DNA from: a virus
DNA length: 64,000 nt
IMG/VR virus record: IMGVR_UViG_3300034104_002622
Coordinates: 1-64,000 of that record
Reading direction: 5' to 3' (one strand)
Shown here: piece by piece, positions 43,543 to 63,616 of the stretch
Numbering within the stretch: position 1 is the stretch's first letter
Layout of the letters: every line of letters starts with the position of its first letter
Program-made: the position numbers and the translations under genes
The notes under the pieces: model-generated
Databases searched by the model: none
Told to the model about the DNA's origin: nothing
Seen by the model: the letters and a program-made list of their open reading frames with translations, nothing else

Positions 43543-43560
43543 CCTCCAGCCCGAAGGGCT
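43543..43560 (-). promoter_or_regulatory. GAA-triloop hairpin element (N4-like promoter candidate), copy 1 of 5
   Basis: + strand CCTCC-AGCCC-GAA-GGGCT; other copies at 47505-47524, 52254-52272, 61742-61759, 63540-63557. Confidence 0.5.
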
Positions 43561-43974
43561 CTATGAAAGCAGCTTGTTAAACTGTCTTCCGATACGTTCT
43601 TGCGCTGTTATTTCGCCGTGGCACTTTTTGCAGACGACACGAAATCCTTCTGCGGGACAAAACAGCCTCTGAATAAACCGATCCCATGAGACGAATCCTT
43701 CTGATCCGACAACTGGGATGATATGATCCGCTTGAACAGCGTTTTGGGGGAATAGATTTCCGCATACGGAGCATTTGTGTAGCTTGCATTTGCGCCCAGT
43801 GGCGGGGTTGATTCCGTGCTCGACGAAGGCAAGGTTGATAGCTCGGTATTTCTCGGGCCACCTAGCTCCTCGCAAGGCGCTTTTGATAAAGCTAATGTAT
43901 CTTGCTTCTGTCCATTCTCCATTGCAGTAGGGGCGTTCGATGTCGGTTCTTTTTTTTGTCGATTTTTTAGCCAT
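43561..43974 (-). CDS. HNH endonuclease
   Basis: CSVC...ADHIIPV...CKKCH. Confidence 0.85.
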   Translation of the reverse strand: MAKKSTKKRTDIERPYCNGEWTEARYISFIKSALRGARWPEKYRAINLAFVEHGINPATGRKCKLHKCSVCGNLFPQNAVQADHIIPVVGSEGFVSWDRFIQRLFCPAEGFRVVCKKCHGEITAQERIGRQFNKLLS

Positions 43975-43984
43975 GACTAAATAA

Positions 43985-44390
43985 AAAGTGAAGCCAGTTA
44001 CCGTATCTGGCGCTAGCTTGACGCTACTAGCGGTTTCATAAATACCACATATTTCAGAGGGTTTCTTAGTTTATGCTTAAGGCAACGTCTTTCCGTTGTG
44101 TCACTATTTTACCAGCTTTTGTCAATTGTTTTGACGCATTTTCGGACTACTGGTTTCCGAGCCGTGCCTTCCGTCTCGTTGCGGCTATGCGCTTCCGTTT
44201 ATGATCCCAAGGGAGCTTATACAGGGACGACGCAGAAATTGTCCAGCTTACCGTTTACTGGGACGGCATTACGCTCCGTCGGTTCCGTTTCAATCCTTGG
44301 AGCACCATGCAACTCTAGGTATTTATCCGTATTCTCGTTTTACCGTAGTCTCTTGGTTCTATCTGCTGCACGGTTAACACAACAGCAAGA
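43985..44390 (-). ncRNA. Candidate structured ncRNA with repeated ACGG(A/T) motifs
   Basis: No credible ORF; 10 ACGG copies on the - strand, several in hairpin loops; ends in a stem plus U-tract. Confidence 0.55.
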
Positions 44391-44392
44391 GA

Positions 44393-44863
44393 TTATTCTG
44401 CTTTTGCACCTTGAAGCATTGCATTGGCAGCGAAAGTGAATGCTACTTCTGCAAGTTCAGGGCGTTCTTTGCGGATCATGTAATCGGCTGCTCTTATTCC
44501 AGTTTCAAGACATTCTTTGATTGTTGGCTTCTCAACTGGCTTTTGGATGTCTTCAGGCTTAACTGCTACTGCTCCTTCAGGTTTTGATAGCTCATCACAA
44601 TTAAGACTTGCTGATCCATTGAAGGTGTTTTTTGTAAACCTTCCTCGCAGTGTCAGTGTTTCTCCTAGTGGTAGTTTCCATTCAGCGGCTGTTTCCCACA
44701 TTGTCATGAACATTTCGTCTGATCCGCTTTTCAATACTACGGATGAGAAGATTTTATTGTTCTTTGCTGTTTTGGGATTGAACTGCTTGTGAATGGTTAC
44801 TGGGCCAATTGAAATGAATGTCTCTCCATCTTTGGCCGAGGCTACTTGGTGGAGAGTGCTCAT
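44393..44863 (-). CDS. OB-fold ssDNA-binding-like protein
   Basis: VVLKSGSDEMFMTMW...LGETLTLRG OB-like pattern; lies next to recombination genes. Confidence 0.55.
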   Translation of the reverse strand: MSTLHQVASAKDGETFISIGPVTIHKQFNPKTAKNNKIFSSVVLKSGSDEMFMTMWETAAEWKLPLGETLTLRGRFTKNTFNGSASLNCDELSKPEGAVAVKPEDIQKPVEKPTIKECLETGIRAADYMIRKERPELAEVAFTFAANAMLQGAKAE

Positions 44864-45157
44864 TTAGAATGCTTCTTCTGAACTGCCGCTATTTGCTGCA
44901 ATTTCTTTTGCTGTTTTGATGTCACCTTTTGAAAACACAACCTTACCATTACCTAGATAGGTTTTGGTTTTCTTTGCTTCGCGATCTTCTTGGCTTTGAG
45001 AAAGCTGAACGGATACGTTATTTCCATAATTGTCATTCTTGTCATCGACAAAAATGGACAAAGGAATGAATGTGGCGGTTTTACCTTTGATCATTTGATC
45101 TTCGGTGAGTTTTGCGATGTCTTCTTTTTTGATGCTGGCGCTAATAATAAGTCCCAT
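44864..45157 (-). CDS. Small phage SSB-like protein
   Basis: DNYGNN...QSQEDREAK...YLGNGK; acidic/aromatic C-terminus EEAF. Confidence 0.7.
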   Translation of the reverse strand: MGLIISASIKKEDIAKLTEDQMIKGKTATFIPLSIFVDDKNDNYGNNVSVQLSQSQEDREAKKTKTYLGNGKVVFSKGDIKTAKEIAANSGSSEEAF

Positions 45158-45185
45158 ATTTTTGTTTTTCTTGTTTGTTTGTTGT

Positions 45186-45776
45186 TTACTTAATGAAAAC
45201 TGAAGCGCATTCTGAATAAGCTGCGACTACGAGTGGTTCTTTCCCATAGGGAGTGTTTCTGGCTTTTTCCATCTTGGCATTTAGATCCTCTAAGGATTTT
45301 TGGATCTTAAAGGATTCGATGATTTTGTCCATCATTCCGTCACTTTTTTGCGAGGTGGCTTTACTTTGATCAGAATTGTCCTTTCCGTGCGTTTCCGTAG
45401 CGTCTGCGTCTTTGGTGTCATCAATGCAGAACAAGCCGTTCAGGGCGTATTTACGGGCGTAGGAGGAGCAAGCGCCCGTCACTTGAGCGTCATCCATACC
45501 TTTTTTGCTTTCAGCTTCACGAGCAAATGCTGTGGTGGAGATGCTTTCTCCTGCATGAGTGAATGTTGCTGTAGCTTTTACGTAAACACGCCCACCAACT
45601 TCAACAATTTCATCGCTGATGGTTAGGATTGCGTCCACTGCATGAAGAAATGGCTTGAGGGCTTCAAGAATTCCCTCTGCGGATCTGTATTTGTAATTTC
45701 CAAATTTGTTCTCAAGGTTTTTTGGAGCGTTGAGGTCAACTTGGATTGTTCTTAGTTTGTCTGCTGCTTTTTGCAT
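45186..45776 (-). CDS. erf: ERF-family single-strand annealing protein
   Basis: NKFGNYKYRSAE...KKGMDDAQVTGACSSYARKYALNGLF. Confidence 0.9.
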   Translation of the reverse strand: MQKAADKLRTIQVDLNAPKNLENKFGNYKYRSAEGILEALKPFLHAVDAILTISDEIVEVGGRVYVKATATFTHAGESISTTAFAREAESKKGMDDAQVTGACSSYARKYALNGLFCIDDTKDADATETHGKDNSDQSKATSQKSDGMMDKIIESFKIQKSLEDLNAKMEKARNTPYGKEPLVVAAYSECASVFIK

Positions 45777-45855
45777 TTATTTATTTGTTTTGATTTAGTT
45801 AAGGCTAAAATATATTCGAACAGTTCGATACACTGAACGCTGCGCATCAGTGATC

Positions 45856-46059
45856 TTAGCTGTTATCCAAAGAAATCAGCAGTTTGGCGGCGCGTTCCAG
45901 TTCAGGATTGAGCCAGTCCCTCTTTTGCGGTAGATCCGTAAGGATGTTGCGAATCACATAGAGCGCATCCGCTAGGCGGTCAGCGGCTTCATTCGATGGG
46001 CGATAGACTCCCGAGCTATTGTCTCGGAGCCATTTGATTAGTTCAGCGTTTGATTTCAT
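45856..46059 (-). CDS. Cassette-borne hypothetical protein
   Basis: 67 aa; ends LDNS* inside an attC. Confidence 0.7.
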   Translation of the reverse strand: MKSNAELIKWLRDNSSGVYRPSNEAADRLADALYVIRNILTDLPQKRDWLNPELERAAKLLISLDNS

Positions 46060-46114
46060 AATTTCGGAAGATGGATAACAAGTTTGTAGAGGCGACGACG
46101 GGCAGCGTCCCCAT

Positions 46115-46354
46115 TCAGGTTGGTAGTCCTTTCCCGTCGTCGCGCCTCACATCGGCGTTAGCGGAAGATTTCAGAATGGCTTCCAGTTTCCATTTAACGT
46201 GATAGAACCAGTCCTGACTGATCCGCCCTGAGAAGGTTGCCATGTCTCCATCGTCCTCAACGTCCGAGTAGTCCAACTCGTCAAGAATCCCGAAGATCGC
46301 TAACAAGTCATGCGAGGCAACCTCTACAACGTCTTTTGGTGGATTCTGGCTCAT
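46115..46354 (-). CDS. Cassette-borne hypothetical protein
   Basis: 79 aa; starts in one attC and stops in the next. Confidence 0.65.
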   Translation of the reverse strand: MSQNPPKDVVEVASHDLLAIFGILDELDYSDVEDDGDMATFSGRISQDWFYHVKWKLEAILKSSANADVRRDDGKGLPT

Positions 46355-46641
46355 GCGTTCGGTGCCTCCATATTTGCGTTAGGCAGAATTAAATCTTCAC
46401 GTTCGCGCCAGAATGCCAGTTGTTCAGACCAATCGCCGGCAAACATCTCCAACGGATATATTTCGTCGTTTTTCCGGTGCAGTTCCCTCCATGAGGATTC
46501 AAAATCCTCAAGGGATTTGAGTTGCTCAAATATAAACTCGTCTAACGTCAAAGAATGCCGAACAAGACGTGAGACGCAATCCCCACTAGTCTCCTGTTGG
46601 GTTAGGGTTTTCTGCTTCGGTGGTGATTTATCGTTTGGCAT
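46351..46641 (-). CDS. Cassette-borne hypothetical protein
   Basis: 96 aa; starts and stops in attC loops; ATGA overlap at 46351-46354. Confidence 0.7.
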   Translation of the reverse strand: MPNDKSPPKQKTLTQQETSGDCVSRLVRHSLTLDEFIFEQLKSLEDFESSWRELHRKNDEIYPLEMFAGDWSEQLAFWREREDLILPNANMEAPNA

Positions 46642-46903
46642 GGTCTTGGGGTATAAGTGGTGGGGATGCGTCTACATTGACGTTCGTAGGTGAGAATTGC
46701 AGTTCATCCAGCATATCGCTTGGATTGTTATTTCCGTTTGCCATCGCTTCAATCCATCGCGCTGGGTCAATCGTTGCGGTGTGCTTCCATCCTTTATCTA
46801 AAAGTTTTGCTTCTACTTCTTGAAGCTCTTGGTCTGAGTAACATTTTATCATTCCATCAAGAGCGTAAATAAAAAGCATTCGATCTAATCTAATTGTTTT
46901 CAT
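46628..46903 (-). CDS. Hypothetical protein ending in attC of array 1
   Basis: Likely start MKTIRL; GWKHTATIDP motif. Confidence 0.65.
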   Translation of the reverse strand: MKTIRLDRMLFIYALDGMIKCYSDQELQEVEAKLLDKGWKHTATIDPARWIEAMANGNNNPSDMLDELQFSPTNVNVDASPPLIPQDHAKR

Positions 46904-47144
46904 GTGTTTTGGGTTTTGCTGGTAAAACATTAAATATTTCAACTACTGGCTTTCCTGTCTCTGGATGACTAATCATTTTAAACTCAACATCAAATTTTTT
47001 GATGCGTTCTCTAAAGTTATAAGCCATGTCAAAATCTGGAAACTCAACGTAAAGGTTAGAGTCGCGTTGGCTTACTTCTTCTTCAAGTCCAGAGTCTTCT
47101 AAAGCTCGCTGAAGGTAATAAGGTAAGTATTGGATGACACTCAT
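46890..47144 (-). CDS. Hypothetical protein
   Basis: 84 aa, coupled to neighbours. Confidence 0.6.
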   Translation of the reverse strand: MSVIQYLPYYLQRALEDSGLEEEVSQRDSNLYVEFPDFDMAYNFRERIKKFDVEFKMISHPETGKPVVEIFNVLPAKPKTHENN

Positions 47145-47494
47145 TTTTTAAGTTGTTTTAGGTTTTCGATGAATTGCGCTGCTTCTGTTGCTGTTACCGT
47201 AATGTTAGAGCCGGGGTCGATAGTTGTTTGTGCTCCTCCTGTCCAAGAGTTGCCTATTCGTTTAGCTGGAGAAGGCATAGACATTATCTTCCAATGGACA
47301 ACTGAGCATTCTGATACTTTCCATGAATAGGGATTACCAGCTTGCCATTCATGATAGATGGCTGATGCCGACTGTTTAAGTGACCATTCAACCACTTTAT
47401 TTTCTTTAAGTAGTTCTTGGGTGTAACGCATAGCATTTAGCCAAAGCTTCTGCTTGGCTACTTGATGCAGCGATTCGATTAGATTCACACTCAT
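47141..47494 (-). CDS. Hypothetical protein
   Basis: Likely start MSVNLI, just downstream of a GAA hairpin. Confidence 0.6.
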   Translation of the reverse strand: MSVNLIESLHQVAKQKLWLNAMRYTQELLKENKVVEWSLKQSASAIYHEWQAGNPYSWKVSECSVVHWKIMSMPSPAKRIGNSWTGGAQTTIDPGSNITVTATEAAQFIENLKQLKK

Positions 47495-47499
47495 GACAA

Positions 47500-47754
47500 T
47501 CAATCCTCTAGCCCCGAAGGGGCTTTGCGCGCTATTAGCATTGCGTCGGCGATTGAGTATGCTCCTTTGGCAACGTCGCAATTCCAGTTGTAAGACATTG
47601 CGGCTCTTCCGGACGCTACCATGATGGCAATAGCGATATTTTCACTTTGCATGGCTTGCCCAGCGAACCAGTCGCGCAGACTCATGCCGCGTAATGCGTC
47701 GTCTCTTTCGTGCATCGGGAACGCTTGCCCGCCGTTGTCTTGTGGTGTGTTCAT
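47500..47754 (-). CDS. Conserved phage hypothetical protein
   Basis: GGQAFP...GMSLRDWFAGQAM...AYSIADAML family motif. Confidence 0.8.
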   Translation of the reverse strand: MNTPQDNGGQAFPMHERDDALRGMSLRDWFAGQAMQSENIAIAIMVASGRAAMSYNWNCDVAKGAYSIADAMLIARKAPSGLED

Positions 47755-47756
47755 TT

Positions 47757-48796: not shown

Positions 48797-48800
48797 TTAT

Positions 48801-49049: not shown

Positions 49050-49083
49050 TTTGAATTCTTTTTTTATTTAGTCAGGCTAAATT

Positions 49084-49284: not shown

Positions 49285-49331
49285 TGTGATTTTAGCGTTG
49301 ACAAATTTTTTGATTGCTTTAGGTAGCGCTC

Positions 49332-50218: not shown

Positions 50219-50847
50219 GAAACGCCAACCTACCAAAGTGTCGAGTTTACGTCCGTTGTGATGCCTTTGGTGGCAGTGAGACAGAGTTTGAACCTGCGTG
50301 GTTAGTCAGCGTCCGAGCGATGCGTAATCGTCCATTTTGTTTTCAAGTTTGGGTAGATAAATACGCTGCTTGCTTTGACAAGATTCCGCCACAGTGCATC
50401 TACCATTACGAGCCGGATGGGAATCAAGCTAACTTACCGCTTCACAAGGTGCAAATGTGGGAGTGTTTATCTGGCAGCATTGAAGTCTGGCAGAAGAGTC
50501 AGCTTTGCGATGTGCCGATGCTTGTCAACATGGGTAAGGGTTTTGCTCCGATGACTGGGCATTACTGGTTTACGATTGATTTTTTACCCGAACATCAATG
50601 TGCAGGAATACTGGACATTGGTGACGTTGAGTTGCTGGAAGAGCACAAAGAGGGAAACGTGGTAAAGTTGTCGAACGGACAGATTGCCATCTACCCAAAT
50701 AATAGGCTTAAATGGTTGCCTATAAGCCTTGTGAAAGAAGGCGCGGCAGAACGCATCCCTAGCTGGGAGGTTGCCACAAACGAGCAATGGGACGACTGGT
50801 GGCAAGACTCATCAGAAATCCTCGGAGACTCCAAGTGGGCTTACTAA
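50215..50847 (+). CDS. Conserved phage hypothetical protein
   Basis: 210 aa; YWFTIDF...EHK...NGQIAIYPNNR. Confidence 0.75.
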   Translation: MRNANLPKCRVYVRCDAFGGSETEFEPAWLVSVRAMRNRPFCFQVWVDKYAACFDKIPPQCIYHYEPDGNQANLPLHKVQMWECLSGSIEVWQKSQLCDVPMLVNMGKGFAPMTGHYWFTIDFLPEHQCAGILDIGDVELLEEHKEGNVVKLSNGQIAIYPNNRLKWLPISLVKEGAAERIPSWEVATNEQWDDWWQDSSEILGDSKWAY

Positions 50848-51043
50848 TATTTAATTGTTTAGCTTTAATTTGTAGGTCTTTTGTTGTTTTTTCCATGTGC
50901 TCAAGAAGAATGTCTTGCATCCAATATGGAGGACAGCGTCTTCCTGACCTCCAATCGTAAGCTGTTGGCATAGAGCATCCAATTTTTTCAGCAATTTGCT
51001 TAGCTGTGTATTTTGATATTTTTTGTTTGAATGTTTTTTTCAT
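50759..51043 (-). CDS. HTH DNA-binding protein
   Basis: TAKQIAEKIGCSMPTAYDWRSGRRCP, Cro-like HTH. Confidence 0.75.
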   Translation of the reverse strand: MKKTFKQKISKYTAKQIAEKIGCSMPTAYDWRSGRRCPPYWMQDILLEHMEKTTKDLQIKAKQLNISKPTWSLRGFLMSLATSRPIARLWQPPS

Positions 51044-51051: not shown

Positions 51052-52221
51052 TTACAGGTCAATTTCCAAATGAATGCTCCATGCTTTAACAAGTTCGTTC
51101 ATTAGAAATTGCTCAAAACGTCTTGATTCGTCTGAATAGCCAATTGTATGACAATGCTCTTCTAGCAGCGTGGTAATCAAAAAAAACAATCCTTGGTCAA
51201 AAGAACGTTCTGTTAAGTGGATAATTTCTGAATGAACAAAAGCGATGTTTAAGTTATCTTCATTTGAGATATATTTGATTTTTGCTTTTACGTCGTATCC
51301 CATTTTTGCCAAAAACTCTTTAGCCTTGGCTAACATCCGTTCGTGGCGCTCAGGCATTTCAATTTGATTGAACTCAGCGTCAGGCAATTGGCTGCGTATT
51401 TGGTGTTGGAGATTACTGATTAGTTTGGTGGGGGATTCTTCCCAGATTTCAGCTACAACTTCTTTCATTGTTACTCCCCACGTGCCGTAATATCCACGGT
51501 CAGCTTCCCAATTAGGTTTTTTCGCTGTAAATAAGTGTTTTAAGATAGACTTATTCGTTAGTTTTTCGATGCCTCTTTCAATAGACCGATAGACATCGTA
51601 GATATTAAAGATAGTGCGATCTTCTGTAAGTTTTACTTCATCTAGCAATTCGTAAGAATACATCGCTTCTTCGATGAAGCCTACCTTAACTCCACGATAA
51701 AATATTTCGCCATCTCCTTTGTAAATGTTGATTTTGTCGGAAGAGGCAATAGGGACGCGAGCACCTACGAAAATGTTTTCGTGATTGTCATAGCACTCTG
51801 CAAATTTTTTGTGAGTGATATAGATAGTGCTGTCTTGTATTGAAACTGGGTGGCGACCCCATTCTCCTCCTTCGTCTATTGTATTCGAAACAAGCTCACG
51901 GTAGGCTCCTTCTAGCTCCCACTGCTTTCCAAGTTCTGTTGTAAATCCAAGCTCACGATCATTGCAAGTAATTACATCAAATGTTTTTCCACGGAATTCT
52001 TTAGTTTCTTTTCCAAATTCATATATCCCATTGGGAGTGATGATGCTGACTGTTGCGTTTTCACGAATGAGAACAGCTAAGGCTAATTTCATTCCGGTTC
52101 CAAAGAAGCCAATTGGAGAATTATTATCTGGTTTAGCATTAATTCCCATAATACTCCAGCTTTCAGGGTGAAGAATGCCAGGAGTGGTAAGCATTATTGT
52201 ATTTGAACAATCTGTATTCAT
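51052..52221 (-). CDS. GHKL-like ATPase domain protein with C-terminal zincin-like motif
   Basis: IGFFGTGMKLA, RELVSNTIDE, TLLEEHCH. Confidence 0.65.
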   Translation of the reverse strand: MNTDCSNTIMLTTPGILHPESWSIMGINAKPDNNSPIGFFGTGMKLALAVLIRENATVSIITPNGIYEFGKETKEFRGKTFDVITCNDRELGFTTELGKQWELEGAYRELVSNTIDEGGEWGRHPVSIQDSTIYITHKKFAECYDNHENIFVGARVPIASSDKINIYKGDGEIFYRGVKVGFIEEAMYSYELLDEVKLTEDRTIFNIYDVYRSIERGIEKLTNKSILKHLFTAKKPNWEADRGYYGTWGVTMKEVVAEIWEESPTKLISNLQHQIRSQLPDAEFNQIEMPERHERMLAKAKEFLAKMGYDVKAKIKYISNEDNLNIAFVHSEIIHLTERSFDQGLFFLITTLLEEHCHTIGYSDESRRFEQFLMNELVKAWSIHLEIDL

Positions 52222-52306
52222 TGTTTATTTGTTTATTTGTTGTTACAAATCAACCTCAAGCCCGAAGGGCTTTAAGTTTATTGATTTATGATTTATTTGT
52301 AATTGT

Positions 52307-52438: not shown

Positions 52439-52484
52439 GGTGTTTGTTGTTGTTCAAACAGGTTGATGCACTGAACGCTTTGCG

Positions 52485-52712
52485 TCACCGATCTTGGCTG
52501 TTCGGAATAAAAACTCGCATCCAGAATGCGACGGGCTGAGACGATGTTTGTCCGCGCCACCCGAATCTTTTGCTCCATGATCCTTTGTCCCACCAACCGT
52601 CAGCGCGGATGATGACTACTTGTTCACCGTCATTCGGCAATGTTGAATCGGCAGAAAAGATTTCCGAACAATTCGTGAGAGGCAACGCCTCGGAGTTTTC
52701 TTGTGTATTCAT
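52485..52712 (-). CDS. Cassette-borne hypothetical protein
   Basis: 75 aa; LPNDGEQV...VAFWM (DUF551-like); starts and stops in attC sites. Confidence 0.65.
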   Translation of the reverse strand: MNTQENSEALPLTNCSEIFSADSTLPNDGEQVVIIRADGWWDKGSWSKRFGWRGQTSSQPVAFWMRVFIPNSQDR

Positions 52713-54505: not shown

Positions 54506-54825
54506 GGTTTATTTTCGGCGCGGGTGGACTCGACGTTCGCAGAAATAAGGCCCGCGACGAGTTCGGGGACTTTCAGAGCCAGAACGTCTTCCTGTATGCT
54601 CCCATCGTCCGATGTCTTTGCTGCCTCGCCGAACATCTCCCCTATCTGGGTGACGATTCCGTGATAGAACGCCTCGTTCCGTGAGAACTGAGCGGCAGAG
54701 TCCATCCATGCGGCAATCCGCTTTGCCACGGCTTCCGCAAGGACAACGTCCATTTCAATGTGCTTGGTTTCATCGTCGCACCAGCATTGGGCGGCGATCT
54801 GTCTTGCTTCTTCGATGTATGTCAT
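54502..54825 (-). CDS. Cassette-borne conserved phage protein
   Basis: AAQCWCD...MDVVLAEA...SDDGSIQEDVLALKVPELV. Confidence 0.75.
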   Translation of the reverse strand: MTYIEEARQIAAQCWCDDETKHIEMDVVLAEAVAKRIAAWMDSAAQFSRNEAFYHGIVTQIGEMFGEAAKTSDDGSIQEDVLALKVPELVAGLISANVESTRAENKP

Positions 54826-54863
54826 AAGATAAAATTCTGCGAACAAGGCGGTCCACGGAACGG

Positions 54864-55235
54864 CTACCCGTTGGACGCTTTGGGTGAAGGTTGAGTCTCA
54901 GCCACGGGTAGCCGCGCGTGGCCTTGTTCGTTCGGGGTTAGGGATTGGAGGGCATCACAAATCATGGATTGCAGTGCCTGACGTGCAAACAGAGCTTGAT
55001 CTTCGCCTCCGCATTCTCGGCAACTTGTCCCATCCGCTATTAGACGCAGTTTCTCCGCCAGCCTGTCGCGCTGCTCGGTGACTGTCTTATTTTCCATCAT
55101 CAGGGATAAAGCGGTTGTCTCTATATTTGCATATTTGTTTTTTAGAATATCCAGTTCTTCTGCAATCTGATACCAAGATTTACCGCTAAGGCATAGAGCC
55201 TTCCATCTTTCGTTTGTGGTTGGTGTATTGTTCAT
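54864..55235 (-). CDS. Modular coiled-coil family protein; ends in attC
   Basis: QRDRLAE and QSLTP blocks. Confidence 0.7.
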   Translation of the reverse strand: MNNTPTTNERWKALCLSGKSWYQIAEELDILKNKYANIETTALSLMMENKTVTEQRDRLAEKLRLIADGTSCRECGGEDQALFARQALQSMICDALQSLTPNEQGHARLPVAETQPSPKASNG

Positions 55236-55528
55236 GCTTCCTTCGGGGTTAGGGATTGGAGGGTTGTTTCGGCAAGGTCTTTTGCTGATTGTGGGTCTTC
55301 GTGAATCAAATTGAAAACACTACAAAGATTATCCGCCAGCCTGTCCCGCTGTGCGGTGACGGTGGCGAGTTCCTCCTGTGCCTTGGCGAATCCGTAGTCC
55401 ATAAACTCGCGGGTTCGGATTGTCTCCTCCCGTGCCTCGTCCCGCTCGCGTTCTAACCTTCTGGCGAAGTCTATGCTAACTCTACCTGTCCCAAACTGGG
55501 CTTCGTCGGTTTCTGGTGTGTCGCTCAT
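55232..55528 (-). CDS. Modular coiled-coil family protein
   Basis: TPETD, ERERDEARE, QRDRLA, QSLTP blocks. Confidence 0.75.
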   Translation of the reverse strand: MSDTPETDEAQFGTGRVSIDFARRLERERDEAREETIRTREFMDYGFAKAQEELATVTAQRDRLADNLCSVFNLIHEDPQSAKDLAETTLQSLTPKEA

Positions 55529-55884
55529 TTCGCGCCCTCCAATGCTTTTTCTGCTTTGATTTGTGATCTATCCCATCCAACTCCGTAAAGGTCGCCGTGA
55601 ACTTGCCTAATGTATCGCCAGCCAGATAGCATATCGCGCAAAGCCTCCCGCGCCTTGTCCCGCTCGCGTTGCAATGTCTTAGCATGATCCCAGATAGTTC
55701 CGTTGGGGTCGCGGAGTTCGCAACCAAGGTCTTTGTTTTGTTGGATGTATTTTGCCTTCCATTCGTCGCGTTCGCGTTTGAGTTCTGCGTTGGTTTCCTT
55801 TAGGAATTGCTTGTATGCTTTTATGTCCTCTATGTTGGTTGCTTTTAACGTAGATTCGTCCGTCTCAGGTGTGTCAGTTTTCAT
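55525..55884 (-). CDS. Modular coiled-coil family protein
   Basis: TPETD and two RERD blocks. Confidence 0.75.
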   Translation of the reverse strand: MKTDTPETDESTLKATNIEDIKAYKQFLKETNAELKRERDEWKAKYIQQNKDLGCELRDPNGTIWDHAKTLQRERDKAREALRDMLSGWRYIRQVHGDLYGVGWDRSQIKAEKALEGAK

Positions 55885-56132
55885 GGCTTCTGGGTTAGGG
55901 ATTGGAGGGCTTGCTGGGCTTTTTCAAATGCTTCTGGCATGGATACTGGCATAAAATCAACGCTGTCAATACAGTTGCAAGATTCTATCAAGTCTTGTAG
56001 TGCCTCCGCCAGCCTGTCCCGCTGTGCGGTGATGGTGGAGAGTTGGTGTTTGAGTCTTGTTATGATTTGACTAATGTAACATGCGACTGCAATGATTGTA
56101 ATGGCTGGGGCAATTATGTCTAAATAGTTCAT
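55881..56132 (-). CDS. Modular family protein with N-terminal TM
   Basis: QRDRLAEAL and QSLT blocks. Confidence 0.7.
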   Translation of the reverse strand: MNYLDIIAPAITIIAVACYISQIITRLKHQLSTITAQRDRLAEALQDLIESCNCIDSVDFMPVSMPEAFEKAQQALQSLTQKP

Positions 56133-56452
56133 GGCTTATGGGTTAGGGATTGGAGGGCTTCGGTTGCAACAAATCTAGCTCCGTGACCATTATCGCATTG
56201 GAGGTCTGAGTAATCGAATGTCGTAATCATTTGCAACGCTTCCACCAGCCTGTCGCGCTCGTCTAATGTCTGTGCCAGTTTCTTGCCCATGCGCTCGTTG
56301 GCATCGTTTAGTTCTCGGCAAACACTCGACATCCTCCATTGCTCCCGTGCCTCGTCCCGCTCGCGCCTTGCTTCTTTTAAGAGTTCCCATGCAGCCAGTT
56401 CACATTGAAGGTCGTTCTCAGCATCCGTCTTAGGTGTTGGTTGTGTATTCAT
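56129..56452 (-). CDS. Modular coiled-coil family protein
   Basis: Start MNTQPTPKTD; RERDEARE, ERDRL, QSLT blocks. Confidence 0.7.
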   Translation of the reverse strand: MNTQPTPKTDAENDLQCELAAWELLKEARRERDEAREQWRMSSVCRELNDANERMGKKLAQTLDERDRLVEALQMITTFDYSDLQCDNGHGARFVATEALQSLTHKP

Positions 56453-56811
56453 GGTTCTTTGTTCGGGTTGGTTGTCCACTTTCTAATCGTGCGAAAGAAA
56501 GCTTCTGCGCGTTGGGCGGCGGTTGCGGTAATGCACATATCAAAATCCATTTGTGCTTTTGTTACTCCAGCTTCTCGGCGGATCGCTTTTTTGATTTGTT
56601 GCGTGTATTTCTTTGGGAGATTCGGGTCGCCATAAAGCATTTTCTCGGCTTCGTGCATCGCGTTTAAGTCGTTGCAGTAGTCGGGAAGCTGGTGAACGTC
56701 ACGCGATAGACGCGCTTGTGGCGGTCGCCAGTATCGAATCTGTGAATTTCCCACGTGGGAAATCCATCCGCACGACTCAGCGATGGCGATTCTTTGCGCT
56801 TTTGGTTTCAT
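56449..56811 (-). CDS. Conserved phage protein, paralog of 58387-58842
   Basis: RIAIAESCGW...LPDYCNDLNAMHEAEK...ATAAQRAEAF. Confidence 0.75.
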   Translation of the reverse strand: MKPKAQRIAIAESCGWISHVGNSQIRYWRPPQARLSRDVHQLPDYCNDLNAMHEAEKMLYGDPNLPKKYTQQIKKAIRREAGVTKAQMDFDMCITATAAQRAEAFFRTIRKWTTNPNKEP

Positions 56812-56954: not shown

Positions 56955-57002
56955 TGTGATAATTGAATTATAATCGAACAGGTTGATGCGGTGAACGAAG
57001 CG

Positions 57003-57308
57003 TCACCGATCTTGGCTGTTCTCGGAAGAAATTTCCGCAGCCATCTTGTCCATGACAGCTTCAGCCGCCACATGCCCGCGATGTTTCAGCAGTTGCCGGA
57101 TGCGGTGCTTTAGCTTGTTTTCGCTGCGTTCGAGCGCCTTGGCGTGTTCCTCCATCTTTTCGAGGTTGTGCCAGTCTTGCCAGTTGTTCCGCTTTATCTC
57201 TTCGGAGAGAGCGGCGGTCTTGGGAGTTTCGCGGAGTCGCTCGGACAAAGAAGACCGAGAACAAGTCGCCGCACGCAACGGGCTATCACTTTTCAATTTC
57301 TTTTTCAT
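57003..57308 (-). CDS. Cassette-borne hypothetical protein
   Basis: Start MKKKLK in attC loop; ends ENSQDR* in the next attC. Confidence 0.7.
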   Translation of the reverse strand: MKKKLKSDSPLRAATCSRSSLSERLRETPKTAALSEEIKRNNWQDWHNLEKMEEHAKALERSENKLKHRIRQLLKHRGHVAAEAVMDKMAAEISSENSQDR

Positions 57309-57882: not shown

Positions 57883-57904
57883 TTGCTGAATTTTTTTATT
57901 GAAA

Positions 57905-58363: not shown

Positions 58364-58386
58364 ATCGTTTGATTTTATTTTGTGTT

Positions 58387-58991: not shown

Positions 58992-59049
58992 ATTATATTG
59001 TTTTGGGAAAGCGTCTCCCCTAGAAATTCTTTATTTAGCCGAGGCTAAA

Positions 59050-59880: not shown

Positions 59881-59900
59881 ACTTATTTATCCCAGATTGT

Positions 59901-60113
59901 TTAGAACAAAGTGTTTGGAGCAAATTTGAATTTATGCCATCCAGCTTTGTGCTTTTCTTGCGCAAGTGCTTTGCGTTCTTTGTGATCTTGCAACATGGCT
60001 TGATGTTTTTCATGCCTGTCTTGACATTTTTGCGGTGTTTCTTTTGCTTTGAATTGCGGAGTCCATTTTGTTATGAATTCGATTTTATCGCTGTATTTTA
60101 CTGGGTTTGTCAT
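59901..60113 (-). CDS. Hypothetical basic protein
   Basis: 70-aa ORF. Confidence 0.55.
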   Translation of the reverse strand: MTNPVKYSDKIEFITKWTPQFKAKETPQKCQDRHEKHQAMLQDHKERKALAQEKHKAGWHKFKFAPNTLF

Positions 60114-60148
60114 GATTGAGTTGGTTAAAAAAAGTGGAGATGGGAGAG

Positions 60149-60688
60149 TTACCTATTGGTAAGAGTTCTGTATTTTCCGGTTTTTGACAATTGGTAAGAT
60201 AGTGATGAAGGGCTAATTCCGTATTTTAATTTTAGTTTTTTGTATCCGAGTCCAGCTTTGTGATCTGCTCGAACTTCCGCCCATGTTTCATCTGTGTGAC
60301 GGCTTGCTGATCTTGATGCTTTTTGTGCGTGAAGTCTTCTTTCTTTTGGGCATCTATCCATTGCATTTTCCGATCCTGTTCCTAAGCGGATGTTTTGAGG
60401 AGTGTTATTTAGGGAGTTCCCATCAAGATGTCTTGTGTGTATGGAATTTTTTAAAGCATCTTCGCCAAATAGCTGAAAAGCTAGTAGTCGATGCACTTTT
60501 ACTGGGTAGCGTTTGGAATTACCTATTCCTACGTTGAAAACATAATACGGGATTGGGTTTTGTCCTGTTCCTGATTTTGTGATTTGTAGTTTTCGGGTTT
60601 TTCCTATTGCATTGCATACACTTCCATCATTCATTACTCGATAGCCTTTCTTGAACGCTATTCTGATTGCTTCTTTTGTTTTAGACAT
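60149..60688 (-). CDS. Free-standing HNH homing endonuclease
   Basis: VHRLLA...RHLDGNSLNN...N...N plus C-terminal HTH; likely start MSKTKE. Confidence 0.85.
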   Translation of the reverse strand: MSKTKEAIRIAFKKGYRVMNDGSVCNAIGKTRKLQITKSGTGQNPIPYYVFNVGIGNSKRYPVKVHRLLAFQLFGEDALKNSIHTRHLDGNSLNNTPQNIRLGTGSENAMDRCPKERRLHAQKASRSASRHTDETWAEVRADHKAGLGYKKLKLKYGISPSSLSYQLSKTGKYRTLTNR

Positions 60689-60736
60689 GTTCAAACTTAC
60701 TTGATTAAGGGTTTGATGCAAGTCTTAATTTGGAAC

Positions 60737-61128
60737 TGGAGCTGGCGGGAGTCGAACCCGCGTCCACAACACTGTTAAATACATTTTCTACAAGCTTAGT
60801 CCTTTCGGACATTGGGGACGCTGGTTAGGCGACCTTCCACCACTCAGTTTTTACGCCGCTGAGTTGCGTTGTTTGCCTTACTGTTTCAGGTCATCCGCCC
60901 GAAGGCACGGCGTAGGATGATCTTACCCGGTTTGTTTCCCTTCGTAGAGCGAGCGTTTCGGAGGGCGTGTTTTGCTTAGGCTACGAGAGCAACTGTGTTG
61001 CTTCCGAAGTTTCCGCGAATGACGTTGTTGCCATTTGTTTGTTTTGAGCGGCTTATTAAAGAGGCCAGCCGATCAACCTCTACTTGCTTATGTATCCTAT
61101 CGCGTTGTGTCGAAACCATTACAGCCCC
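60737..61128 (-). ncRNA. ssrA: tmRNA (392 nt), tag (A)GNNVIRGNFGSNTVALVA
   Basis: 5' GGGGCTGTAATGGTTTCGAC; 3' GGACGCGGGTTCGACTCCCGCCAGCTCCA with G3-U70 acceptor pair; tag ORF 61032-60976; CCA not encoded. Confidence 0.95.
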
Positions 61129-61145
61129 GTAAGATTGATATTGCT

Positions 61146-61190
61146 AAAAAAAGTGATAGCTCCACCCAAGATTTTGTCAAGGGTGGAGCT
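61146..61190 (-). terminator. Intrinsic terminator
   Basis: AGCTCCACCC...GGGTGGAGCT followed by a T7 run on the - strand. Confidence 0.75.
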
Positions 61191-61198
61191 AGGTATGA

Positions 61199-61651
61199 TT
61201 AGAACGCTACGTCAAGCGATGTTGGAGCTGTGAAAGCTGCGTCCAACTCGTCAAGATCAACGTCTTCAGCTTCTGTGCTGTTGTCTGGACCGACATAGCG
61301 AACTTTGGCTTGGATGCGTCCATTGTATTCTTCGTGTTCGATGCGTAGTGCGCATTTCTGATTTACAATTTGTGCAACGTCTTTGAAGGACTCGATGCTG
61401 AATGCTTCTTTGACTTGTTTTGCTGTGTTTTGCGCTGCTGCTGGTGTCGAGCAATACATTTCGTGGTTCACGATGCGCGTTCCTGTGTCGCAATCAAGTG
61501 CAAGGTGAAGCTTGCCGTTGCGATTACGGCGCATTGCTGCACCAATTACGACTGCATTGTGAATCCCGGGCTTAATAAGTCCGATGAACGGTGCGTTGGT
61601 GATGTTAGGTGCTGCTGCTGTTTCGATTTGTTCTGTAGTTTCAGTGTTCAT
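61199..61651 (-). CDS. DUF669-like / SSB-like protein
   Basis: PGIHNA...IEHEEYNG...KVRYV, acidic tail ending in F. Confidence 0.65.
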   Translation of the reverse strand: MNTETTEQIETAAAPNITNAPFIGLIKPGIHNAVVIGAAMRRNRNGKLHLALDCDTGTRIVNHEMYCSTPAAAQNTAKQVKEAFSIESFKDVAQIVNQKCALRIEHEEYNGRIQAKVRYVGPDNSTEAEDVDLDELDAAFTAPTSLDVAF

Positions 61652-61764
61652 TGTTTTTCCTTTTTGTTTGTTTTAGATTGTGCGTTGTCGTTGTGTCGCA
61701 CCCCACTGCTTGTTCTATTTCGTATCTTTTACATACTATAACCTCAAGCGCGAAGCGCTCCCGA

Positions 61765-63492
61765 CTAACTCAGGAGTGCGTCGAGTGTAGAGGCGAATTC
61801 TTTTGCTGCGGCTTTTTCACGAATGAGCATACCGAAGCGGTTATGAGTGATGCTGTTTTCTACTGCTTTGCGACGGCGAAGCTGTTTTGCATCATTTAAG
61901 GTGCATGAAATCACTTTGCGGTTCATGTAGCGTGATGGCGACATGATGAACGTGGTTTCAGGCTCAATGTTGTTATCTGGTGCAATGGTCATGCACGGCA
62001 GGGTTTTGACTGGCTCCATCACGGATTTCTCCGTTCTTCCCATTGTCCACATATTGTGGGTTTGGGGATACCAGTAGCGACTTACATCTTGGGATGAGGA
62101 CTCAGTGCAGAATGCGTTGTGCAGTGTTGTGAGGCGTGTAAGGCGCTCAATCTTCTCTTGCATCCATTCGATGATTTGCTCGCTAAGCTCATTCGGCTCC
62201 TGCTTCATGCAACGCTCGATGGTTGCTTTGGCGCTCTCAATGCCTTCGTGGAGGTAGTCCTCGGTGAAGGCTTTGGATTGCGCGTCTCCCATCGTGATGC
62301 CGCTCTCAGACCGCTCTATGACGCTGGAAACAGCGCGGAACAGTTCAAGCTCGTCATCATCTTCGGCAAACTTGGATAGATCAATGAAGACTTGATCGTC
62401 CTCACGCTGTGGAAAGCAGGTTAGGAACTCTTCTTCTTCGTTCATGAAGTCCACAACTTCGCCGTTTTCGTTCTCAATTGCCAAGTCTGAGCTTTCGCTG
62501 AGTAAGTGGTAATCAAGCTGTGAAAGGCTTAATGGAGCCTGATACGCTTCGTGGCCTTCAGGAATACCCTTGTTGGGGTTGTCCTGTGTAAGCTCGTTGT
62601 TTGCATCAACCCAATAGCTAGATGGTGTGCATTTTGGATTCAACCTCCAGCCGATGTAAACCAGCCAGACGTTGCCTTGCCATGCCGATGTGTAGCTTGG
62701 GAGCCACTTGTAGCATTGTTCAATCTCACCCTTGTCGTTTGTCCACTCAATGAGCGGTGCTTCTAGGATTTGATTGAGGACTGCGGTGTCTCCACCTACA
62801 GGCACGATTCCTATGCGCGTAGCGATGTTTCTAAGAGCCCTTGACGGATACTTGTTCAGTATCGGAGCCAAGGAGCCTTGCGAAGCTCCTAGGTTGACGA
62901 TACGGCCATCTGGGAGCTTCATCGCATAGTAGGCTTCAGCGTGTGCCTTGCCTTTAACTGCTGGTGGCAACTCGTGAATCACCGAATCAACCCATTGGAA
63001 CCGATCTCCAACCTTTTCCTTTTTAGCCACGGCTAAATTAGCATAGTTGGATGGTGTTTGATGCTTGGATTGTTCTGCTTTCCACGCTTTGCGCGACTTT
63101 ACCGACTCAACTGCGTAGCAAGCTGCTGCCAGCCTGTCTTCTACGCTTTCAAGTCCTTCTTTGGCACGGTCAATGATGGCAATCTCATCTTTCTCCAGCC
63201 CGTAACGGCCAAAGTTGCGATAGATCATCAGCTTTTGCTGCCACATTGCGTTTGCGAGCTGCCGGGATTCGGCAAATTTCGCCATTTCATCAGCCATTGA
63301 ACTCATCACTGGGTCGTTGGCGATTAGTTCATTCAGTGGCACTCGCGGTGCAAGCTGGATAAACGGTGCTGGTTTGATGAAGTTGCGAGCGAACGCTTCT
63401 TCCAGTTGGCACACGATGTCGTGTGGGGTGACGCTATTCTCTGCCAGAGCGTCAATTGCGGCGTTAGGATATGCTGTAACCGATTTTGTCAT
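61765..63492 (-). CDS. Large hypothetical early protein
   Basis: Likely start MTKSV; flanked by two GAA hairpin elements; no motif recognised. Confidence 0.75.
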   Translation of the reverse strand: MTKSVTAYPNAAIDALAENSVTPHDIVCQLEEAFARNFIKPAPFIQLAPRVPLNELIANDPVMSSMADEMAKFAESRQLANAMWQQKLMIYRNFGRYGLEKDEIAIIDRAKEGLESVEDRLAAACYAVESVKSRKAWKAEQSKHQTPSNYANLAVAKKEKVGDRFQWVDSVIHELPPAVKGKAHAEAYYAMKLPDGRIVNLGASQGSLAPILNKYPSRALRNIATRIGIVPVGGDTAVLNQILEAPLIEWTNDKGEIEQCYKWLPSYTSAWQGNVWLVYIGWRLNPKCTPSSYWVDANNELTQDNPNKGIPEGHEAYQAPLSLSQLDYHLLSESSDLAIENENGEVVDFMNEEEEFLTCFPQREDDQVFIDLSKFAEDDDELELFRAVSSVIERSESGITMGDAQSKAFTEDYLHEGIESAKATIERCMKQEPNELSEQIIEWMQEKIERLTRLTTLHNAFCTESSSQDVSRYWYPQTHNMWTMGRTEKSVMEPVKTLPCMTIAPDNNIEPETTFIMSPSRYMNRKVISCTLNDAKQLRRRKAVENSITHNRFGMLIREKAAAKEFASTLDALLS

Positions 63493-63616
63493 GTTATCAT
63501 CCTTTCTATTTTGTCCATACACTCGCATGGACGCTGGTATCTCAAGCGCGAAGCGCTCGAAACCCAGTCCTATCGCCTCTCAGTGTGAACCAAGAGACGA
63601 ATGGACTAGGCTTTAG

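Follow-up and report, generated by a model that had tools for sequence, protein, structure and literature searches.

Five copies of a short GAA-capped hairpin in the early region of an uncultured lake phage are best explained as a family-specific signal that acts as a folded single strand and not as duplex DNA. The genome is circularly assembled and 73,283 bp long, and the window analysed here comprises 64 kb of it. The five hairpins reported in an earlier note were all recovered letter for letter (Table 1), and all of them (5/5) lie, as that note had stated, at junctions of minus-strand genes. The whole genome holds exactly five copies of the family, none of them outside 43.5-63.6 kb. The conservation of the hairpin, its covariation and its fixed template-strand orientation in seven genomes extend the earlier observation.

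Table 1. Hairpin sites and other features considered in the analysis, with the predicted minus-strand +1 of each site.
Feature	Coordinates	Strand	Predicted +1	Description
Site 1	43543..43560	+	43543	CCTCC-AGCCC-GAA-GGGCT; stem-loop 43548-43560
Site 2	47505..47524	+	47506	CCTCT-AGCCCC-GAA-GGGGCT; stem-loop 47510-47524, 6-bp stem
Site 3	52254..52271	+	52254	CCTCA-AGCCC-GAA-GGGCT; stem-loop 52259-52271
Site 4	61742..61759	+	61742	CCTCA-AGCGC-GAA-GCGCT; stem-loop 61747-61759
Site 5	63540..63557	+	63540	TCTCA-AGCGC-GAA-GCGCT; stem-loop 63545-63557
Giant late ORF	16843..32904	+		5,353 aa; candidate virion-enzyme carrier
Primase-helicase	37828..39663	-		Toprim + DnaB-like ATPase
HTH protein gene	50759-51043			early region
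p389	51052-52221	-		389-aa gene
p587	61765..63528	-		587 aa; family-specific early protein, fold unassigned

At site 1, read in the mRNA sense, the TAG stop codon of an HNH gene is followed by the hairpin, GGAGG, tattt and the ATG of a 72-aa ORF. Site 2 falls within the final 8 codons of the ORF 47500-47754, and an ATG follows 13 nt on (47494). Site 3, whose stem could be extended by one further A-T pair (to 52254..52272), is located 34 nt upstream of the ATG of p389. The last two sites flank p587: its stop codon lies 5 nt before the hairpin of site 4, and site 5 lies inside a structured 124-nt leader (z -6.05) upstream of the gene, whose true start is likely at 63492, giving a protein of 575 aa.

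We compared the source genome with six relatives from IMG/VR (28-99% protein identity, 39-56% GC), all of which (6/6) carry 3-5 hairpin copies, giving 30 copies across the seven genomes. Relative to the early block, the GAA is on the template strand in 30/30 copies, and the late block contains none. A copy precedes p587 by 23-341 nt in 7/7 genomes, the DUF932 gene by 58-403 nt in 5/7 and p389 by 22-60 nt in 4/7; p587 has a hairpin on each side in 7/7. In the source genome, AGCNCGAAGNGCT has four matches, all on the + strand, compared to a mean of 0.04 in 100 dinucleotide shuffles, none of which reached four. Neither the core GCGAAGC alone (13 matches, 10.45 expected) nor GC-rich 5-bp triloop hairpins in general (13 vs 9.0, 50 shuffles) are enriched, hence only the specific hairpin family is exceptional. 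The strict pattern is similarly one-sided in five relatives (forward/reverse matches 4/0, 4/0, 2/0, 0/3 and 4/0), and reversed-pattern controls in the same genomes gave 0/0 with a single exception of 1/1. One relative (G001) has five pattern matches on one strand and a single non-palindromic match on the other.

The consensus reads A-GC-S-C/GAA/G-S-GC-T, followed by T, G or A, then GAG and a purine. In an unfiltered scan with NGCNCTTCGNGCN, the variable S:S pair was C:G 19 times, G:C 18 times and A:T twice, in agreement with the covariation noticed earlier; the six non-Watson-Crick matches were all on the other strand or devoid of the GAG flank. Among 38 sites, which had been chosen beforehand such that the variable pair does pair, 96.8% of cells pair, both sides change in 4/5 pairs, and the covariation score of 0.341 (vs 0.069) was reached in 0/500 shuffles. 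The bases between the hairpin and the predicted start are conserved as well (G in 26/27, A in 21/27 and G in 21/27 sites). At a distance of 11 nt from the loop centre, the five sites have C, C, C, C and T on the + strand, i.e. the purines G, G, G, G and A in RNA, as had been proposed, and a purine occupies the predicted +1 in 22/27 sites (34/40 in a larger set). Further downstream, T is found at +8 and G at +9 in 19 of the 27 sites each, and C at +7 in none. The first NTG stands exactly at +7 in 17/40 sites. Such a first NTG is present in 28 sites, 11 of which begin an ORF of 1-5 codons (e.g. ATG-TAA, TTG-TAA and TTG-TCA-TGA, which overlaps the ATG that follows). On the other side of the hairpin, a long upstream frame ends with its stop codon directly against it in 17/40 sites and crosses it in 8 more.

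The likeness to the N4 promoter hairpin, claimed in the earlier note, was confirmed against the N4 record and a review. According to the review, the hairpin extends from -17 to -5; its stem has 5-7 bp, its 3-nt loop is centred on a purine at -11, and the template strand carries a sheared -10G:-12A pair. In the N4 record, the non-template strand of P1 reads GTTGC-TTC-GCAAC, with a 5-bp stem, so that the template loop is GAA, and the G at position 107 (+1) is 11 nt from the loop centre; the same count at P2 gives G576, with a leader of 10 nt. The early promoters of N4 (Schitoviridae), read by its virion RNA polymerase (vRNAP), and the elements of the lake phage thus share the template-strand hairpin with a C-GNA-G 3-nt loop and a 5-bp stem, the identical core GC-GAA-GC (P1), purines at the loop centre and 11 nt from it, and the presence of several copies in front of early genes. 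Both also mix conserved stem bases with pairs that need pairing alone. There are differences, however: N4 promoter loops are GGA or GAA, whereas the lake phage always has GAA; the bases between hairpin and start serve in N4 as an uncontacted ruler, while the lake phage keeps GAG there; and its sites span 20 kb and are absent from the start of the early block. In the scatter of its sites it resembles the Pseudomonas phage LUZ7, in which ONT-cappable-seq revealed hairpin promoters of early and middle genes spread through the genome. LUZ7 hairpins are likewise GC-rich, have 3-4-nt loops on stems of at least 4-6 bp and stand upstream of many early and middle transcription units, and transcripts begin at G, but the start is 13-15 nt from the hairpin centre (the best purine in the lake phage is at 11 nt), and LUZ7 encodes both vRNAP and RNAPII.

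We tentatively interpret the five elements as putative template-strand hairpin promoters of the N4 type, a reading to which we give somewhat less than an even chance. The template (+) strand would extrude a 5-bp hairpin capped by a very stable C-GAA-G DNA triloop, and a phage-supplied polymerase, or a factor that recruits one, would recognise the loop together with the conserved bases of the stem. Transcription would then begin at the purine after the conserved GAG, some 11 nt from the loop centre, and proceed into p587, p389, the DUF932 gene and adjacent minus-strand genes. Since early genes amounting to about 4.3 kb precede the first hairpin, and the minus-strand block restarts at 49.3 kb without one, other promoters must exist as well. 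Such a mechanism calls for the DNA strand, rather than RNA, as the presumed active form and for a polymerase that has escaped recognition.

A search of the giant ORF and the rest of the genome for a polymerase fold, suggested in the earlier note, detected no RNA polymerase, and its statement that no N4-type polymerase is recognisable in the window was upheld for the complete genome. Pfam and PHROGs comparisons identified none among 81 ORFs or pieces, nor did a PDB sequence search, and no DxDxD motif is conserved across the seven genomes. In tblastn searches with 25 N4 proteins the sole match was the exonuclease, with no homologue found of N4 vRNAP, RNAPII or structural proteins. The alignment of the giant ORF gave a probability of 3% against N4 vRNAP in hhalign, and Pfam domains were found in 0/10 of its homologues. 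The ORF resembles a virion "polyvalent protein", and its last 954 aa, which are all-alpha, have their matches in the C-terminal modules of such phage proteins rather than in a polymerase.

Almost as likely as the promoter is an explanation that requires no phage polymerase, in keeping with these empty searches: the active form would be an RNA hairpin (AGCSC-UUC-GSGCU) in early polycistronic mRNAs, bound by a putative phage-encoded RNA-binding protein. It could serve in antitermination, like the nut/boxB sites of lambda, as a translational operator or ribosome-entry module, or as a processing/stabiliser site framing single cistrons such as p587. The hairpin is transcribed in any case, given that all 30 copies read in mRNA sense within the early block. 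As RNA, the conserved GAG (-3 to -1) with an NTG 5-6 nt later, in the arrangement GAGG-N5-NTG, resembles a Shine-Dalgarno sequence and a start codon, often that of a start-stop or 2-5-codon mini-ORF whose stop runs into the start that follows, and the abutting upstream stop codons (25/40 sites, crossing frames included) fit too; an RNA-level element explains these features about as well as a promoter does. A start at +1, if true, would even exclude GAGG from the transcript, which counts against the promoter. The C-terminus of p587, ALRA, is encoded by the hairpin in 14/58 homologues, while 13 others have a variant of it at or close to their end, and both the framing of p587 and the strong structure of the site 5 leader point in the same direction. 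Nearest-neighbour energies, -7.4 to -10.5 kcal/mol for the RNA hairpin vs -3.9 to -5.8 for DNA, give the DNA form no advantage; the DNA parameters score GAA and TTC strands nearly equally, so evidently no bonus for the GAA loop is included. Lambda nut sites, bound by N, likewise present few copies of a short, GC-rich 5-bp boxB hairpin of conserved sequence on the sense strand of early operons, often right after a stop codon. However, boxB is capped by a 5-nt GNRA-like loop and preceded by boxA, while here the loop is of 3 nt and the linear element follows the hairpin. Among RNA elements a 3-nt loop of UUC is unusual, and it is not favoured in RNA, in contrast to its complement GAA, which is hyperstable in DNA; the UUCG tetraloop register is impossible for the GCGC-type hairpins, judging from their sequence. 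RNA stems usually tolerate G-U pairs, yet none occurs in 39 true sites. Since the other genes of the phage lack Shine-Dalgarno sequences (an SD-like tetramer precedes 9/73 genes, two of the nine at hairpins), the GAGG does not represent the usual ribosome site of this phage; the G at -3 keeps register with the hairpin and not with the start codon, and the NTG at +7 is missing from all nine sites upstream of p587. Pfam/PHROGs searches recognised no N-like protein, RNA-binding domain or RNase domain, and no Rfam family matches the hairpin.

Three further interpretations are less likely than either the N4-type promoter or the RNA hairpin. Of the enzymes recognisable in this genome, the primase-helicase alone starts RNA on single-stranded DNA, and the hairpins might be its single-strand initiation signals, as in the G4 complementary-strand origin or RSF1010 ssiA, which we regard as unlikely. 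Primases read a fixed-register trinucleotide beside a hairpin, and the conserved 5'-CTC-3' beside the stem would be the start triplet; the positive GC skew of the + strand from about 12 to 64 kb, across early and late gene blocks, is compatible with this strand as the lagging-strand template. Single-stranded GNA mini-hairpins with an RNA start fixed beside the stem are documented at the G4 primase origin and at RSF1010 ssiA/ssiB (in ssiA CCGAAGG, recognised by the RepB' primase), although as one or two origin sites not tied to gene starts, and not as 3-5 sites in register with early genes. Priming leaves unexplained the confinement of all copies to the early block, their recurrence before the same genes and the NTG at +7 to +9, and general lagging-strand priming demands far more than 3-5 sites per 70 kb. 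The position of the hairpin directly after or across the upstream stop codon, and the copy after p587 in every genome, would suit a terminator or attenuator that closes the upstream cistron, just as intrinsic terminators and 5'/3' mRNA stabiliser hairpins are GC-rich stem-loops at cistron boundaries. This too is improbable: no T-run follows the stem (+2 to +7 are mixed A/T), and a terminator scan found site 3 alone, on the wrong (+) strand. The convergent junctions, where terminators are expected, are devoid of hairpins (near 33.1 kb, where the early block ends, and at both edges of the + strand island, 49.3 and 50.8 kb), strong termination inside co-directional gene arrays would orphan the genes downstream, and a generic terminator, conserved in structure only, would not hold 13 nt nearly invariant across genomes of 39-56% GC. 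Least credible of all is the reading of the 5-3-5 palindrome as a duplex-DNA operator to which a dimeric repressor or activator of the phage would bind. The palindrome forms a perfect inverted repeat with conserved half-sites, and the HTH gene and other small early genes could supply such a protein, but the polarity of GAA with respect to transcription is identical in all copies, the GAG flank is asymmetric, and the variable position changes jointly on both arms with pairing preserved, while a protein that ignores this base would need no paired change.

The proposal that the hairpins are promoters for a phage polymerase is in part supported by their N4 geometry, conservation and strand bias, and weakened by the polymerase that was not detected and by the fit at the RNA level. 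Taken together, the data are best explained if both the sequence and the strand of this signal matter, and if it governs the expression of early and middle genes.

All five GAA-triloop hairpins that the earlier note had described, read on the + strand over minus-strand genes, were found in the sequence exactly as reported (see the table). The pattern AGCNCGAAGNGCT has four matches, all on the + strand, versus a mean of 0.04 in 100 dinucleotide shuffles, none of which reaches four; the fifth copy (site 2) has a 6-bp stem and the other copies stems of 5 bp. Neither the bare 7-mer GCGAAGC (13 versus 10.45 expected) nor GC-rich 5-bp triloop hairpins in general (13 versus 9.0 in shuffles) are enriched, and the outlier is one specific repeat family, the same as the 22-nt family D8 of the repeat finder. 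The genome is a single contig of 73,283 bp with ends overlapping by ~113 bp, of which the window comprises bases 1-64000; the other 9 kb contain no further copy.

Relatives were found by an exact-pattern scan of IMG/VR, combined with tblastn searches of the phage proteins against the matches listed. Among these, the palindromic matches in AT-rich intergenic DNA belong to relatives of the phage, and most of the others are non-palindromic and lie in GC-rich coding DNA or tRNA-like sequence. Six relatives were taken whole (37.8-73.3 kb, 39-56% GC, 28-99% protein identity to the phage), with 5, 4, 5, 4, 4 and 3 copies, respectively. GAA is on the template strand in 30/30 copies of the seven genomes, all of them over minus-strand genes and none in the late block of plus-strand genes; a control with the pattern reversed gave 1/1 in one of five genomes and 0/0 in each of the other four. 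A search of sequencing runs listed 24 matching runs, all of them DNA contigs from lake or freshwater metagenomes and each with at least half of the sampled words, and no RNA run that matches the phage. For four of these runs, none of 40 differences listed, with 544 further ones beyond the list, falls inside a hairpin, from which no conclusion is drawn. The hairpin family is real, non-random and conserved, and the phage group is common in lake metagenomes.

Hairpin copies, conserved positions, gene setting and other features of the phage genome (profile positions are in mRNA sense, with the loop centre set to -11 and the predicted transcript start at +1)
Feature	Position or distance	Strand	Observation
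Hairpin site 1	43543	GAA on +	
Hairpin site 2	47505	GAA on +	stem and loop at 47510-47524
Hairpin site 3	52254	GAA on +	
Hairpin site 4	61742	GAA on +	
Hairpin site 5	63540	GAA on +	
Profile	-18		purine 24/27
Profile	-17 to -5		A G C S C / T T C / G S G C T, near-invariant
Profile	-4		T 16, G 8, A 3 (n=27)
Profile	-3		G 26/27
Profile	-2		A 21/27
Profile	-1		G 21/27
Profile	+1		purine 22/27
Profile	+2 to +7		A/T-rich mix, without T-run
Profile	+7		C in 0/27
Profile	+8		T 19/27
Profile	+9		G 19/27
Copy upstream of p587	23-341 nt		7/7 genomes
Copy just after p587			7/7 genomes
Copy upstream of p389	22-60 nt		4/7 genomes
Copy upstream of DUF932 gene	58-403 nt		5/7 genomes
Copy after exonuclease gene			5/7 genomes
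Copy before exonuclease gene			1/7 genomes
p587 (587-aa early protein)	61765-63528	-	
p389 (389-aa gene product)	51052-52221	-	
Giant ORF (5,353 aa, late)	16843-32904	+	
Cassette with hairpin 2	47145-47752		swapped in G001
Non-coding stretch	43975-44392		418 nt
~50-nt repeat	45815-45865, 52453-52503, 56974-57021		three copies
Tandem small paralogous genes	54800-56500		
tmRNA gene	60734-61128	-	
p587 leader	63493-63616	-	three hairpins
Stretch of positive GC skew	12000-64000	+	

A position profile was built from 27 unique sites, with 40 unique sites in a wider set. In mRNA sense the order at each of the five hairpins of the phage is the end of the upstream gene, AGCSC-TTC-GSGCT and (T/G/A)GAG(G/A). 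The loop is C-GAA-G in every copy and 3 nt long throughout. Nothing is conserved upstream of -19 in the 27 sites, so that a linear promoter ahead of the hairpin is absent.

The stems were claimed to covary (CCC/GGG versus CGC/GCG), and indeed the variable pair is complementary in all true sites: in the unfiltered scan it is C:G 19 times, G:C 18 times and A:T twice, and the six non-pairing matches lie on the opposite strand or are without the GAG flank. Both A:T copies (AGCAC/GTGCT) flank p587 in one relative, G004, and the rarer variants AGGCC/GGCCT and GCGCC/GGCGC preserve pairing at other positions. In a set of 38 sites 96.8% of cells are paired, both sides change in four of the five pairs and the covariation score is 0.341 versus 0.069 in shuffles (0/500 reach it), although this set was preselected for pairing at the variable pair, so that the count from the unfiltered scan is the fairer figure. 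In seven of the 45 unfiltered matches the outer A-T pair has become A/G, leaving a 4-bp stem. The unfiltered scan contains no G-T or G-U wobble in either sense, and wobble is therefore uninformative on which strand folds. Extension of the stem by pairing of -18 to -21 with -4 to -1 occurs at site 5 only. A UUCG-tetraloop register is ruled out for the GCGC-type stems, where it is impossible, and Rfam has no match at the hairpins.

Plus-strand genes, among them tail and lysis genes and the giant ORF, occupy the genome from 67,893 onward, across the contig ends, up to 32,904; the terminase (TerL) has a weak match, with 22% identity to Curtobacterium phages, and megablast and tblastn searches against isolated phages revealed no close relative. 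Minus-strand genes, from ~67.9 to 33.2 kb, encode a primase-helicase, Erf, an exonuclease, RNA ligase, MazG and HNH proteins. The five hairpins lie within this early/replication block, at 63.5, 61.7, 52.3, 47.5 and 43.5 kb, the first of them ~4.3 kb inside it and all five spread over 20 kb. The copies flanking p587 are present in four additional fragments. At 17 of the 40 sites a frame of 60 codons or more that comes from upstream stops at or just before the first hairpin base, which accounts for the purine at -18, and at 8 further sites such a frame crosses the hairpin and stops 7-16 nt past the loop centre. That TGAG supplies the upstream stop codon with its TGA in every case was rejected, as this is true at 5/40 sites only. 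In the p587 frame the hairpin reads Ala-Leu-Arg-Ala for every variant; among the 58 full-length p587 homologues, 14 have ALRA as their last residues and another 13 carry a variant of it there or close by. The hairpin itself codes for the C-terminal residues in about half of the homologues. The distance from the hairpin to the next long ORF varies (7-184 nt at the 40 unique sites), and A-rich spacers of 27-35 nt stand at ordinary gene junctions of the phage, so that the hairpin looks inserted between the stop codon and a normal leader.

Several other features of the genome were observed. The cassette with hairpin 2 is replaced in G001, a relative with ~99% protein identity, by an unrelated cassette of ~980 bp, in which a hairpin of the alternative stem type (GCGC) stands immediately before the next conserved gene. 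Upstream of the HNH gene before hairpin 1 is the non-coding stretch of 418 nt, which has a 760-nt replacement in one lake contig and matches no Rfam intron model. Between hairpin 4 and an HNH gene lies a tmRNA gene (Rfam RF00023, 137 bits, gathering score 47), for which ARAGORN gives the tag peptide GNNVIRGNFGSNTVALVA*. Four of the tandem small paralogous genes are preceded by the 18-nt leader CCCTCCAATCCCTAACCC (mRNA sense, family D4). GC skew of the + strand is positive over both the late (+) and early (-) blocks and AT skew flips with gene direction, a pattern that points to a single direction of replication for most of the genome.

The hairpins were compared with the promoters of phage N4. 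The N4 review describes conservation from -17 to +1, including a GC-rich heptamer whose centre is at -11 and which has inverted repeats on either side; stems have 5-7 bp and loops 3 nt; the template strand has a sheared pair between -10G and -12A and a stacked purine at -11, and the junction of double and single strand falls between -5 and -4; binding requires the conserved stem bases, the remaining ones needing only to pair, and the template-strand hairpin withstands SSB. This agrees with the statement in the earlier note that the virion RNA polymerase (vRNAP) recognizes a template-strand C-GNA-G triloop centred at about -11. In the N4 record, promoter P1 occupies 90-102, where the non-template strand reads GTTGC-TTC-GCAAC; its template loop is therefore GAA closed by C-G, and it shares the core GC-GAA-GC with AGCGC-GAA-GCGCT of the phage. 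The base 11 nt from the loop centre of P1 is G107; P2 (AGAAGC-TCC-GCTTCT) gives G576, 10 nt ahead of the gp2 start codon. A purine is present at the start position predicted from N4 spacing in 34 of the 40 sites of the wider set. Stem length, loop length, C-GNA-G loop, purine loop centre and purine at the predicted start are thus shared with N4, and the sites are not found ahead of the early region's first transcription units. Their spread over 20 kb is nearer to the early/middle pattern of LUZ7, whose early- and middle-gene hairpin promoters are scattered genome-wide with G starts 13-15 nt from the hairpin centre, than to the early-region heads of N4. As far as the parts of the literature searched go, hairpin promoters are described only for N4-like phages, in papers that either deal with N4 relatives or mention these for comparison. 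A review of DNA mini-hairpins gives GGA or GAA as the loops at N4 promoters and lists just two further natural occurrences, at the G4 origin and at RSF1010 ssiA, each of them a primase site. The leader of p587 folds into three hairpins (-62.1 kcal/mol, z -6.05). Mini-hairpin 5 is closely preceded by a long stem that contains G-U pairs, an order that resembles the terminator-then-promoter arrangement between gp1 and gp2 of N4.

The phage family keeps this P1-type mini-hairpin without a recognizable N4 polymerase or structural gene. That the window encodes no recognizable N4-type polymerase had been noted before, and by sequence this extends to the whole genome: no RNA polymerase was detected by Pfam and PHROGs searches of 81 (70 + 11) ORFs and pieces and of ten 1,000-aa tiles of the giant ORF, or by searches of PDB sequences that used individual proteins as well as the profiles A1, A3 and A4. 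An hhalign comparison of a 5-sequence giant-ORF alignment with N4 vRNAP gave a probability of 3%, tblastn with 25 N4 proteins had a sole match, gp42 against the exonuclease, and DxDxD scans revealed no motif common to the family. Orthologues of the giant ORF are 5,085-5,977 aa long, and their identity is no more than 26-28%, including the one from a genome that is ~99% identical in its other proteins. None of ten giant-ORF homologues has a Pfam domain, nor has any of the three matches of a word-based homologue search, and the ESM Atlas gave weak leads only, to LPD39, LPD38, LPD1 and MuF_C.

The search for a polymerase fold proposed in the earlier note was carried out by modelling 954 of the 5,353 residues of the giant ORF together with p587, and no polymerase appeared in these parts. 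The C-terminal 954 aa of the giant ORF are confidently predicted to form an all-alpha domain (AF2 pLDDT 80.2, pTM 0.81). Foldseek found no match to it in the PDB; in 41 rows (E 2e-10 to 1e-3) it matches the C-terminal parts of phage proteins with the annotations large polyvalent protein, MuF-C, PolyVal ADP-ribosyltransferase and Flavobacterium phage structural protein. The 69 representative homologues are mostly C-terminal ends of proteins of 2,200-6,400 aa, the others being short fragments. Because the C-terminal fold matches and the ESM Atlas leads agree, the giant ORF is predicted to be most likely an ejected polyvalent virion protein. For p587, which has 61 homologues (model pLDDT 69.9), fold searches (AF2, Foldseek, VIA) returned coiled-coil pieces only (Z <=8.4), the family has no Pfam or PDB-sequence match, and a cluster look-up of the homologues gave no names. 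A hidden virion polymerase has a precedent in the P23-45 tape-measure fusion, and a virion polymerase can favour single-stranded templates without a recognizable early promoter motif, as described for phi14:2 in a preprint.

The sequence after the stem resembles a translation signal. Shine-Dalgarno-like GGAG, GAGG or AGGA occurs within 20 nt upstream of 9/73 genes, two of them at hairpin sites, and leaders are 45% A and 10% G; given this rarity, CCTC on the + strand is not merely the complement of a routine ribosome site. A-rich leaders poor in Shine-Dalgarno sequences are typical of Bacteroidota, and the Flavobacterium phage protein among the giant-ORF fold matches was noted alongside them. 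In the arrangement GAGG-N5-NTG the NTG stands at +7 in 17 of the 40 sites; 28 sites have a first NTG, of which 11 open ORFs of 1-5 codons.

As the sites do not lie at the start of the early block, and at least one restart of the block, at 49.3 kb, lacks a hairpin, other promoters must exist. No enrichment was found for sigma-70 sites (15 versus 24.9 expected), for the Bacteroidota -7 box TANNTTTG (38 versus 46.9 in the window, 9 versus 10.0 in the remaining genome) or for the two-box pattern (2 versus 2.4). A repeated sigma-70-like TTCAsy-N17-TATAAT may be one of these other promoters; it is contained in two of the three copies of the ~50-nt repeat, which are possible host-type promoters of the early block. 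The copies at 52.2-52.5 and 56.8-57.0 kb are followed by paralogous Cys-rich mini-genes of ~40 aa.

How the hairpins act can be weighed from these observations. That they are N4-type promoters, folding as DNA on the template strand, is the single most likely mechanism, by a narrow margin and at less than even odds, and membership of the N4 system is not established. It is favoured by the hyperstable C-GAA-G on the template in every copy, the RNA triloop UUC not being a preferred one, by a geometry identical to that of N4 P1, by the retention of a specific sequence across genomes of widely differing GC content and by the position of the copies before the same early genes. The likeness to N4 is closer than the earlier note could verify. 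Against the promoter inference, the sites stand away from the start of the early block, the restart at 49.3 kb has no hairpin, no polymerase was found, and the GAG + NTG element looks like a ribosome site that a transcript starting at +1 would omit. An RNA hairpin bound by a protein would explain GAGG-N5-NTG, the mini-ORFs, the way stop codons touch the hairpin and the p587 framing, and we regard it as almost as likely as the promoter; it must assume a sequence-specific RNA-binding protein that is equally unrecognized, and Shine-Dalgarno pairing that works solely at hairpin sites. A lambda nut/boxB site in particular was rejected, since the loop has 3 nt in all copies instead of a GNRA-like 5 nt, no sequence is conserved upstream of -18, where a boxA would be expected, and Pfam and PHROGs recognized no N-like protein among the phage ORFs.

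The remaining explanations are improbable. A single-strand initiation signal for primase (of the G4 or ssiA type) would account for a DNA hairpin with an adjacent fixed triplet in a phage that encodes a Toprim primase-helicase, but the distribution of the sites tracks genes and not an origin, which leaves it little likelihood. Slightly less still is left to an intrinsic (Rho-independent) terminator, since there is no U-run (+2 to +7 being mixed A and T), a terminator scan listed site 3 only and on the opposite strand, and copies are missing from convergent junctions. An operator bound as duplex is very improbable, as it is contradicted by the fixed polarity and the covariation. A small share of the probability is assigned to none of these explanations.

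Returning to the promoter reading, we consider it rather unlikely in its full form, namely that the phage represents an undescribed freshwater family of ~70 kb, probably infecting Bacteroidota, which has N4-type ssDNA hairpin promoters, is unrelated to Schitoviridae and uses an RNA polymerase of unrecognized type. Such a candidate polymerase could reside in the other ~4,400 residues of the polyvalent giant protein or be an early protein of a new kind, e.g. p587. If this were true, hairpin-promoter transcription would have arisen or spread outside the N4 lineage. The 18-nt motif provides a testable handle on regulation in an uncultured and almost wholly unannotated phage group. If the sites are promoters, there is an undiscovered polymerase, and the motif is a direct assay for finding one; if they are RNA sites, they would represent a new RNA-protein system with sequence specificity, which acts as punctuation in the early operons of a host without Shine-Dalgarno use.
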